Positions 2,969 to 3,448 of a stretch of 24,000 nucleotides of DNA are shown here, piece by piece. Both the position numbers and the translations under genes were made by a program. A model generated the notes under the pieces. That model did not search any database and had not been told where the DNA came from. It worked only from the letters and a program-made list of their open reading frames with translations. Source of the DNA: Izhakiella capsodis. GTDB taxonomy: Bacteria; Pseudomonadota; Gammaproteobacteria; Enterobacterales; Enterobacteriaceae. Location of the stretch: the NCBI RefSeq assembly GCF_900115045.1, contig NZ_FOVC01000015.1:22163-46162 (forward strand), in the 5' to 3' direction. How positions within the stretch are numbered: the first letter of the stretch is position 1; each line of letters opens with the position of its first letter.

Positions 2969-3448
2969 TTAGAAGACAAAAGCTGCTACAGCTACAAAAA
3001 CCTCCACTGCTACAGCCACATCAGTAACACCTGCAACGTTGGTTACTGCAACTGCATTAGCCACAGCCTCAGCATTCACGTCAACATTCGTATTTACCTG
3101 AGCTGAGCCAGTCAAAGCACTTTTGGATTTTGAAAGGTTCGCGTACAAAGTCATCAACTCTAAAGCCTGGGGATAATGCTTTTTGATATAATCAACATAA
3201 ATATCTGCTGATTCTTTTAGTTTAGAATTAGCTTCAGTTGTATCGCTATACTGTTTAACAATATTGGCAATCATCTTAGACATGGTGACAAAATTTTCAT
3301 CATTAACCAGATTTATCATCTGCTTAACATTTTCTGGAGTGCTGTTGTTTTCCTCTAATTGCTTTCTAATATTTATATCTGTGATTGCTGCGAAAAAAAC
3401 ATTAAACTGTTGTAAATCAGTGAGGCTTACTGTTATTTTAAAACTCAT
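2969..3448 (-). CDS. 159-aa precursor-like protein: hydrophilic helical N-terminal region of about 110 aa (Nif11-leader-like pattern) plus a Val/Ala/Asn-rich C-terminal 45 residues
   Basis: ATG 3448 is preceded by GGAGA with a 6-nt spacer. The C-terminus is SAQVNTNVDVNAEAVANAVAVTNVAGVTDVAVAVEVFVAVAAFVF. It lies 39 nt upstream of the rSAM gene on the same strand. The 185-aa TTG-extended version in the ORF track lacks an RBS. Confidence 0.7.
   Translation of the reverse strand: MSFKITVSLTDLQQFNVFFAAITDINIRKQLEENNSTPENVKQMINLVNDENFVTMSKMIANIVKQYSDTTEANSKLKESADIYVDYIKKHYPQALELMTLYANLSKSKSALTGSAQVNTNVDVNAEAVANAVAVTNVAGVTDVAVAVEVFVAVAAFVF

Follow-up and report, generated by a model that had tools for sequence, protein, structure and literature searches.

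The stretch of DNA analyzed here, referred to as the window, comprises 24,000 nt of contig NZ_FOVC01000015.1 from Izhakiella capsodis (Erwiniaceae). Its minus strand encodes a candidate peptide precursor of 159 residues plus stop (2969..3448; WP_092879804.1, annotated as a hypothetical protein) and, beginning 40 nt downstream of that gene, a 347-residue radical S-adenosylmethionine (rSAM) enzyme that resembles the peptide epimerase YydG, also known as EpeE (1886..2929; WP_092879801.1, annotated as a radical SAM protein). We describe these two genes and their relatives in other bacteria; the basis of all conclusions is computational.

Translation of the open reading frames (ORFs) places the start of the precursor gene at an ATG at 3448, with a GGAG sequence 7 nt 5' of it, and its stop codon at 2969-2971. 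The initial annotation of the window had given these coordinates correctly, and the coding strand is the minus strand. A plus-strand reading of 2969-3448 was rejected because stop codons occur throughout the frame, and the 84-residue ORF that the plus strand does contain (3264-3518) is an artefact of antisense reading. A TTG start at 3526, which would extend the protein to 185 residues, was also rejected, as the Shine-Dalgarno sequence belongs to the ATG at 3448, where the homologs begin as well.

The last 45 residues of the precursor (SAQVNTNVDVNAEAVANAVAVTNVAGVTDVAVAVEVFVAVAAFVF) consist of 15 Val, 12 Ala, 5 Asn, 3 Thr, 3 Phe, 2 Asp, 2 Glu, and one each of Ser, Gln, and Gly, with no Cys, Trp, Tyr, His, Lys, Arg, Pro, Met, Leu, or Ile, exactly as first counted; the precursor contains no Gly-Gly motif, as had also been stated. 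The DNA encoding this tail reaches 42% GC, the highest value of any 200-nt stretch in an island with 24-37% GC, and this departure from the local composition indicates that the composition of the tail is not accidental. No 18-nt tandem repeat was found in the DNA beneath the tail, and such a repeat was accordingly rejected as the origin of the hexad pattern described below.

We divide the protein into three parts, all on the minus strand: a predicted leader-like N-terminal domain (residues 1-113; 3110..3448), based on an AlphaFold2 model and invariant alignment columns; a junction (residues 114-118, GSAQV; 3095..3109), based on the family alignment; and a predicted 41-residue core (residues 119-159; 2972..3094), based on parity and lag-6 statistics and on the tails of the family. 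Across the family, the junction closes a linker of variable length and sequence; G114 is semi-conserved, and GSAQV is a possible cleavage site.

A copy of the two-gene module that is 94% identical is found on a metagenome contig (L081) with flanks different from those in the window. Relative to this copy, the ratio of nonsynonymous to synonymous substitution rates (dN/dS) is 0.12 for the precursor gene and 0.09 for the rSAM gene. Both genes are under purifying selection.

The radical SAM enzyme

In addition to matching Pfam Radical_SAM, the enzyme has TIGR04078, the "YydG family radical SAM peptide epimerase," as its best NCBIfam model (E 7e-27), with an alignment that covers profile positions 5-307 of 309. 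The score of 94.7 bits lies below the 300-bit equivalog cut-off; the enzyme is a homolog of YydG/EpeE and not an ortholog. Its only relatives in the PDB are the YydG structures 8AI1-8AI6 (E 1.4e-14 over enzyme residues 6-311). No proteusin-epimerase model is found among the 12 NCBIfam models matched by the enzyme, a comparison made at the level of family models. With PADLOC, weak partial matches to the prokaryotic viperin rSAM core were obtained (E 5e-8, residues 12-98), and no defense model in that collection matched the precursor.

Across 30 homologs of the enzyme, C16/C20/C23 (CX3CX2C), C205, the P-C223-C224-G motif, and C289/C292 are invariant. The cysteines of the rSAM cluster, of the auxiliary cluster, and of the H-atom donor are all present, and they align to those of YydG, which holds two [4Fe-4S] clusters and in which Cys223 is the H-atom donor that completes epimerization (PMC5682303, PMC13012085). 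In the alignment, C223-C224 falls on the PCC pair of YydG in its tagged PDB chain; assuming a 25-residue tag offset in that chain, C224 would be the equivalent of native YydG Cys223.

A precursor family paired with the radical SAM gene

An exhaustive HMMER scan of 1.84e9 cluster representatives yielded a precursor family of 32 proteins (E < 1e-3). A word-indexed protein search returned the Izhakiella protein and one 94% copy alone, and five proteins when the family profile was used. Members share an N-domain of ~100 residues with the patterns LPLxL, F..F..A..D..VR..L, P..V.Q...L..D..F, and YP.....L..Y, followed, after a linker of variable length, by a tail of the type VAANAEAVVNAAVYANVAVATxVxVAAAAVxVVxVxV. 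This tail type is preserved in ~30 distant homologs across the family.

A scan from the rSAM side, with one genome per species, gave 80 loci. A protein with a Val/Ala/Asn tail is encoded directly upstream in each of the closest rSAM loci (L001-L012, L015, and L018), and starting from the precursor side we found eight further contigs, all with the rSAM gene directly downstream. A tally of the loci examined gave 13 of 13 with the rSAM gene immediately after the precursor gene. The pairing is kept in every locus inspected, across distant phyla, with hosts that include Pyrinomonadaceae, Verrucomicrobiota, Ktedonobacteria, Thermogemmatispora, and Dehalococcoidia, as well as Ferruginibacter, Saccharopolyspora, Calidithermus, and Enterobacterales. 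In six members, twin-arginine-like motifs can be recognized by eye in an extension of the N-terminus, one of them near the threshold of the hidden Markov model, which suggests export of an already modified product.

No model in Pfam, NCBIfam, PHROGs, or PADLOC describes these precursors. One match to DUF6267 (E 5e-4), which scored 20 bits where the cut-off is 27, was dismissed as noise, and tblastn with the precursor as query gave no match in phages or plasmids. Full-text literature searches, whose scope excluded subscription-only papers, returned no description of a YydG-type epimerase together with an AerE-type methyltransferase (see below) or with such precursors. The family is widespread and apparently undescribed.

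Periodicity of the predicted core

In the tail of the window protein, all Asn, Asp, and Glu residues fall at odd positions (119, 121, 123, 125, 127, 131, 137, 143, and 149), and they include an exact six-residue series, N119-N125-N131-N137-D143-E149. Even core positions are mostly occupied by the beta-branched residues Val and Thr, and the final 16 residues are nearly pure Val/Ala/Phe. The enrichment at lag 6 is significant in this protein by itself (p = 1e-4). Across the family, Asn residues recur at lag 6 in 68 cases against 6.3 expected (z = 26) and are again enriched at lag 12 (z = 17), while the remaining lags are depleted. When the Asn register is used as the reference for parity, the family contains 104 Asn at that parity and 0 at the other; the corresponding counts are 42 and 5 for Asp, Glu, and Gln combined, 30 and 11 for Gly, 55 and 13 for Phe/Trp/Tyr, 108 and 208 for Val, and 10 and 41 for Thr.

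Residues i and i+6 lie 240 degrees apart in an alpha-helix and so are not aligned, whereas in a beta-6.3 helix they are nearly exactly stacked. The strict parity and the six-residue recurrence of polar residues lead us to predict an alternating D/L beta-6.3 helix for the modified core. The local contexts of Asn here are T-N-V, V-N-A, and A-N-A. In aeronamide, D-Asn25/31/37/43 line one face of the beta-helix, and its D-Asn residues have Ala/Thr as neighbors to one side and Val/Ala/Thr/Gly to the other; the 49-residue core of polytheonamide B carries 18 epimerizations and eight Asn N-methylations and has alternating D/L configuration (PMC9060474). The window core displays the two features of a proteusin-type core, alternation and an i+6 Asn stripe; its tail has no match among PDB sequences.

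On balance, we lean toward the view that the precursor is the substrate of the adjacent YydG/EpeE-type rSAM enzyme, and that the two form an epimerase-only system for a beta-helical D/L channel peptide. The initial annotation had proposed a peptide made by the ribosome and modified after translation (RiPP), with a Val/Ala/Asn core epimerized by the neighboring rSAM enzyme, in the manner of polytheonamide or the epipeptides. The homology to YydG, the PCC motif, the synteny, the i+6 Asn stripe, and the AerE-type enzyme in relatives all speak for that proposal, as judged from sequence comparison.

The same periodicity could be read without D-residues, if the tail stayed all-L and formed a hexapeptide-repeat left-handed beta-helix or an amyloid-like Asn ladder while the rSAM enzyme performed other C-H chemistry. 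Periods of six and two and ladders of Asn are classic features of beta-solenoids; however, no Hexapep or other beta-helix model in Pfam matches at E <= 1, a solenoid with 18 residues per turn would need more than two to three hexads, the tail offers no Cys, Trp, Tyr, or Lys for the known rSAM cross-links, and the enzyme keeps the H-donor Cys specific to epimerases. We regard this alternative as very improbable.

An extreme Asn-rich variant of the core is found in Calidithermus roseus (L018, 4327-4947), in which the protein upstream of the rSAM gene contains an extended (N-x)n stretch (NVNVIANANWKVNANVNYNANANLNANANANANYNANTN) and, after it, a hydrophilic extension at the C-terminus. Nearby genes encode an AerE-like methyltransferase and a protein that resembles the SdpI-family protein of another locus (L003).

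The N-terminal domain as a proposed folded leader

AlphaFold2, run on the 32-sequence family alignment, predicts six helices in the N-terminal domain (residues 12-21, 25-33, 39-49, 51-67, 71-91, and 93-113), with means of the predicted local distance difference test (pLDDT) of 76-94 in 10-residue blocks over residues 11-110. This model backs the helical N-terminal region of about 110 residues proposed at the outset. Conserved positions include D24, R28, D50, F53, and Y92-P93. Foldseek found no neighbor of the leader model in the PDB below E = 1. The further suggestion that the N-terminus resembles a Nif11 leader was not borne out: Pfam and NCBIfam gave no match to a Nif11 or NHLP model, either for the window protein (E <= 1) or for the 32 family members (E <= 0.1).

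A confidently folded and conserved domain of 100 residues could instead be the functional part of the protein, with the V/A-rich tail as its membrane anchor and an rSAM enzyme that acts elsewhere or tunes the anchor. The six members with twin-arginine-like motifs would then resemble Tat-dependent tail-anchored proteins, with an extracytoplasmic domain held by an anchor at the C-terminus, and the lack of a protease gene in the window would suit a protein that stays unprocessed. However, after Y92-P93 the highest conservation is found in columns of the tail (N131 and N137, joined by T142 in a 22-sequence alignment), the synteny with the rSAM gene is absolute in the loci examined, and both the hexad Asn stripe and an Asn methyltransferase would be superfluous for an anchor. 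Proteusin NHLP leaders are likewise large and folded (PMC10858898, PMC12537861), so a folded N-domain is no argument against a role as leader. A tail-anchored or structural membrane protein is therefore an improbable reading, and we favor a leader or carrier for an epimerized core.

Methyltransferase genes in related loci

A protein of 353-378 residues is encoded after the rSAM gene in many of the related loci (L001, L003, L004, L006-L011, L015, L018, L093, L094, L095, and L098). It matches a small-domain methyltransferase family in Pfam, and its nearest NCBIfam models are the PrmC/HemK amide N-methyltransferases. A profile built from ten of these sequences matches AerE (PDB 7RC2) with E 1.1e-25, aligning positions 47-343 to AerE 64-368; the next PDB match has E 7.6e-9. 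AerE is the D-Asn N-gamma-methyltransferase of the aeronamide pathway. Its catalytic residues Tyr137/Asp141/Asn231 correspond to the motifs Y-x-G-x-D-S and NPPL, which are kept in the motif-bearing copies; NPPL is present in five of the ten sequences, and several verrucomicrobial copies are without it. PoyE fully methylates only epimerized substrate (PMC9060474), and by the same logic an AerE homolog argues for a D-configured, methylated Asn stripe in the relatives.

Three verrucomicrobial loci (L006, L008, and L010) each encode two AerE-like paralogs. The copy that directly follows the rSAM gene lacks the NPP motif in all three, and the second copy in L006 has NPPL; the first copy is possibly degenerate or without catalytic activity. 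The precursors of these loci show an especially regular hexad (NLGILLNVGIIANVGVGLNVIAAANIGVYLNV).

The methyltransferase is absent from L081 and from L082, a locus with a 58%-identical rSAM enzyme and the same two-gene layout as the window. As both the L081 copy and the more divergent L082 share it, the two-gene layout is a maintained variant. In it, Asp and Glu occupy the bottom two rungs of the stripe (Asp143 and Glu149 in the window), and L082 keeps both.

The small gene number in the window could also be a product of decay, with methyltransferase, protease, and immunity genes lost when the cargo was captured between insertion-sequence ends, leaving an inactive product. Duplicated insertion-sequence ends do bound the island (see below), and the extra genes of most relatives are missing here. 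Against such a remnant, both genes are intact with all invariant residues present, the low dN/dS values were obtained against an independent copy in a different context, and L082 shares the layout; we consider decay a slim prospect compared with a functional two-gene module.

Accessory genes and a possible SDP-like toxin

Other genes in the related loci suggest processing and self-protection. SdpI-family membrane proteins are encoded in L003 (by Pfam) and L018 (by similarity to the L003 protein), and L094 encodes a DUF1648 protein and a YhfC-type membrane protease. An alpha/beta-hydrolase of ~285 residues lies between the rSAM and methyltransferase genes in L093 and L098, and bacterial PH-domain proteins occur in the Verrucomicrobiota loci. 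A subtilisin-type S8 peptidase is encoded nearby in L098 (1055-2563); it and the alpha/beta-hydrolase are candidate leader-removal enzymes, and both are missing from the window. These accessory genes fit a toxin with immunity and processing functions.

They also bear on a second possibility, in which the product is a membrane toxin of the epipeptide or SDP kind, with few D-residues and a helical or hairpin structure, that perturbs the membrane or the proton-motive force with or without cleavage. The closest enzyme, YydG, makes two epimerizations, SdpI-family and DUF1648 membrane proteins occur in the three loci named above, and the last 16-20 residues have the length of a transmembrane helix. 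Weak co-linear matches to the toxin_SdpC model TIGR04032 were found in nine of the 32 family members, with scores of 14-23 bits and a best E of 6.9e-5. These scores are far below the cut-off of 99.2 bits, the window protein has no match at E <= 1, and neither do the more distant rSAM partner proteins match SdpC; we rejected a relationship to SdpC as established and keep this recurrent signal as a lead alone. Neither the parity of Asn (104:0) and its i+6 series nor the AerE-type Asn methyltransferase in relatives is explained by such a toxin. It is an unlikely reading, if the leading one among the rivals, and a channel peptide of alternating configuration remains our preferred one.

Proposed mechanism

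Under the channel-peptide reading, the folded six-helix N-domain (approximately residues 8-113) would act as a large leader or carrier and the last 41 residues as the core. The enzyme would abstract the C-alpha hydrogen from core residues, and Cys224 would return a hydrogen from the opposite face, converting L- to D-residues in a mass-neutral reaction. Epimerization of one parity of the 41-residue core would give an alternating D/L peptide. In a membrane, this peptide is predicted to form a monomeric, bilayer-spanning beta-6.3 helix of ~4 nm in which the carboxamide and carboxylate side chains spaced at i+6 form one stripe, and the helix could serve as a channel for monovalent cations or protons that depolarizes cells, as do polytheonamide B and aeronamide A. 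In most relatives, the AerE-type methyltransferase would N-methylate the stacked Asn residues, and the window copy and its two closest relatives would be a natural two-gene, epimerase-only version.

Several points weigh against this proposal. YydG/EpeE makes just two epimerizations in a 17-residue core, compared with the approximately 20 alternating ones proposed here, and PoyD/AerD, the makers of alternating D/L peptides, belong to another rSAM lineage. The pattern of periods two and six is compatible with ordinary all-L beta structure as well, and the last 16 residues could equally suit a short alpha-helical membrane anchor. Asp143 and Glu149 would be placed within the bilayer. The expected parity of the D-residues is split, as the analogy to AerE would place them at the Asn parity and the Val/Ile preference of YydG at the other. 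AlphaFold2 gives low confidence for the tail (block-mean pLDDT 31-49) and, as D-residues are beyond its scope, this model does not discriminate between the readings. Maturation, export, and self-protection also lack an explanation in the window: the precursor has no signal peptide, genes for a protease, an exporter, or immunity are missing from the locus (the island, 1287-5374, contains neither protease nor ABC genes), and no methyltransferase was found by tblastn of the window, with nothing below E = 0.4.

Comparison to known systems

The predicted product resembles the channel-forming proteusins polytheonamide B and aeronamide A in its Val/Ala/Asn/Thr/Gly-rich core of 40-50 residues (41 in the window, 49 in polytheonamide) with an i+6 Asn stripe, in the large folded leader, in the rSAM gene adjoining the precursor gene, in the AerE homolog found in most relatives of the window locus, and in the predicted D/L beta-6.3-helix cation channel. 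In contrast to the proteusins, the leader belongs to neither the NHLP nor the Nif11 type, and the rSAM enzyme, by its best family and structure matches, appears to be of the YydG/EpeE lineage. Inspection of the loci revealed no B12-dependent rSAM C-methyltransferase, dehydratase, or hydroxylase; in the window copy the N-methyltransferase is missing too, and the last two rungs are Asp and Glu. The polarity of the core is also reversed compared with PoyA, with the Asn stripe first and the pure V/A stretch at the C-terminus.

The epipeptide system of Bacillus subtilis (YydF/EpeX with YydG/EpeE) provides the closest enzyme and the sole relative with a solved structure, sharing the two-cluster architecture and the PCC H-donor motif, and Val and Ile are its known epimerization targets. 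Its product acts on membranes (PMC7026026). However, the window precursor has 159 residues and a folded leader, compared with 49 residues, and its core has 41 residues with parity and a hexad, compared with 17 residues and two D-sites. The window also lacks counterparts of the EpeP protease and the EpeAB transporter/immunity pair that are part of the epe operon (PMC13012085).

SdpC/SDP (TIGR04032) is similar in being a pro-protein of ~160-200 residues with a helical N-terminal part and a hydrophobic V/A-rich toxin segment, in the SdpI-family/DUF1648 proteins of some related loci, and in the N-terminal signal that replaces a dedicated exporter in some members. Mature SDP bears a disulfide, whereas the window tail has no Cys, and the sdpABC operon is not known to contain an rSAM gene. 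Gramicidin A is a non-ribosomal peptide synthetase product of 15 residues, an alternating D/L Val/Ala-rich beta-6.3 helix that conducts monovalent cations as a head-to-head dimer; the predicted window product would be of the same physical kind, yet ribosomal, 41 residues long, and able to span the bilayer as a monomer. The system resembles those of ribosomal D/L beta-helical channel peptides while being neither a proteusin, by its leader, nor an epipeptide, by its precursor and operon.

Very few producers of ribosomal beta-helical channel peptides are known. The pathway of polytheonamide B involves 48 modifications and seven enzymes. If the proposed mechanism is correct, ribosomal D/L channel peptides would also be made in nature by epimerases of a second lineage (YydG-type), unrelated to the first, and with a leader of new fold, such peptides would be spread over many phyla, and YydG-type chemistry would extend from two to many iterative epimerizations. 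A compact, mobile, membrane-depolarizing toxin module would also be added to the known cargo of conjugative plasmids. The minimal set of modifications needed for helix formation and channel activity is an open question in the field (PMC9060474), and the Izhakiella plasmid would offer a natural two-gene, methylation-free version from a cultivable relative of E. coli with which it could be directly tested.

The plasmid island and its lysis genes

Judging from its gene content, the window is part of an F-like conjugative plasmid or integrative-conjugative element. F-like conjugation genes at 7766-21208 encode TraF, TraH, TraG_N, an SLT lytic transglycosylase, and a TraD-type coupling protein, and a 1736-residue ORF after TraD is, by its position, a candidate relaxase. 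A psiA-like segment at ~1000-1200 is 85-89% identical to psiA from plasmids of Citrobacter, Mixta, and Salmonella.

The precursor and rSAM genes lie in the low-GC island at ~1287-5374 (4.1 kb, 24-37% GC). It is bounded by two direct copies of an 87-nt sequence with 97% identity, spaced 4175 nt apart on the plus strand (1200..1286 and 5375..5461), a delimitation that agrees with the GC profile. The right copy runs into a transposase with an integrase core (rve), at 5782-6450 or, in a longer delimitation, 5585-6450. The repeats have the look of an insertion-sequence left end, which we read as IS3-type, the tested domain being the integrase core only. It seems that the island was captured within insertion-sequence copies or between them. 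Its DNA matches nothing in E. coli genomes or phages, and the matches in plasmids are confined to the psiA and insertion-sequence edges.

On the minus strand, the gene order in the island is endolysin, Rz with embedded Rz1, precursor, and rSAM. The phage-type endolysin (4077..4577, 166 residues) matches Pfam Phage_lysozyme (1.3e-38) and a PHROG endolysin (5e-51), and its Gly/Ala-rich hydrophobic N-terminus looks, by eye, like a signal-anchor-release segment. The Rz-like spanin (3610..4098, 162 residues; Pfam Phage_lysis 5.3e-13, PHROG 1.6e-30 and 2.7e-15) lies immediately upstream of the precursor gene and contains an ORF for an Rz1-like lipoprotein (3651-3887, minus strand). No holin-sized ORF was found upstream of the endolysin, where 470 AT-rich nt contain no minus-strand ORF longer than 24 residues. 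This lysis cassette (3610-4577) lies on a plasmid, outside any recognizable prophage.

As the island has no holin or exporter and the precursor no signal peptide, the peptide might be coupled to the lysis cassette, either as a membrane-depolarizing RiPP substitute for a pinholin that triggers release of the endolysin or with the cassette serving for toxin release in the style of colicins. The pair in L081 occurs without the lysis cassette, which keeps this coupling a low-probability conjecture.

A 9-bp GC-rich hairpin (CCCCUCUAA/UUAGAGGGG; 2941..2962, minus strand) lies between the precursor stop codon and the ribosome-binding site of the rSAM gene. Its RNA fold has -19.5 kcal/mol over 71 nt (z = -2.9), and the stem is kept in L081, with a change in the loop only. 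The hairpin may act as an attenuator or mRNA stabilizer that sets the ratio of precursor to enzyme. Downstream of the rSAM gene, outside the segment conserved in L081, a hydrophobic ORF of 58 residues (1463-1639, minus strand) has no PHROG match and could encode a small membrane protein, possibly for immunity.

Other partners of related radical SAM enzymes

More distant rSAM relatives (25-31% identical) occur on viral or prophage contigs from IMG/VR (L083-L092), which encode no protein with a Val/Ala/Asn tail upstream. In most of them, a conserved protein of ~351 residues with a twin-arginine-like signal is encoded downstream, and this looks like a different, uncharacterized rSAM-partner system. 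A phage origin of the precursor-rSAM pair was rejected, as the viral contigs hold these distant enzymes with another partner, bar a 46-residue fragment match (L091), and as L081 contains the pair without lysis genes.

Distant rSAM enzymes in Bacillota, Actinomycetota, and Alphaproteobacteria (L025, L035, L052, L061, L072, L075, and L079) are encoded behind proteins of 180-440 residues. In these proteins, which do not match SdpC, a V/A-rich hydrophobic segment is internal and is followed by a C-terminal domain.

Seven loci in Eremiobacterota / Vulcanimicrobiota (L026, L027, L029, L030, L050, L057, and L059) contain another conserved protein, of ~80-115 residues, encoded before the rSAM gene. 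It has the pattern ..VTDLATRRR..L..ITFVFGGVHYGT...GKPIVLY..P....GPLDCL.TDD and may represent another class of substrate for YydG-like enzymes.

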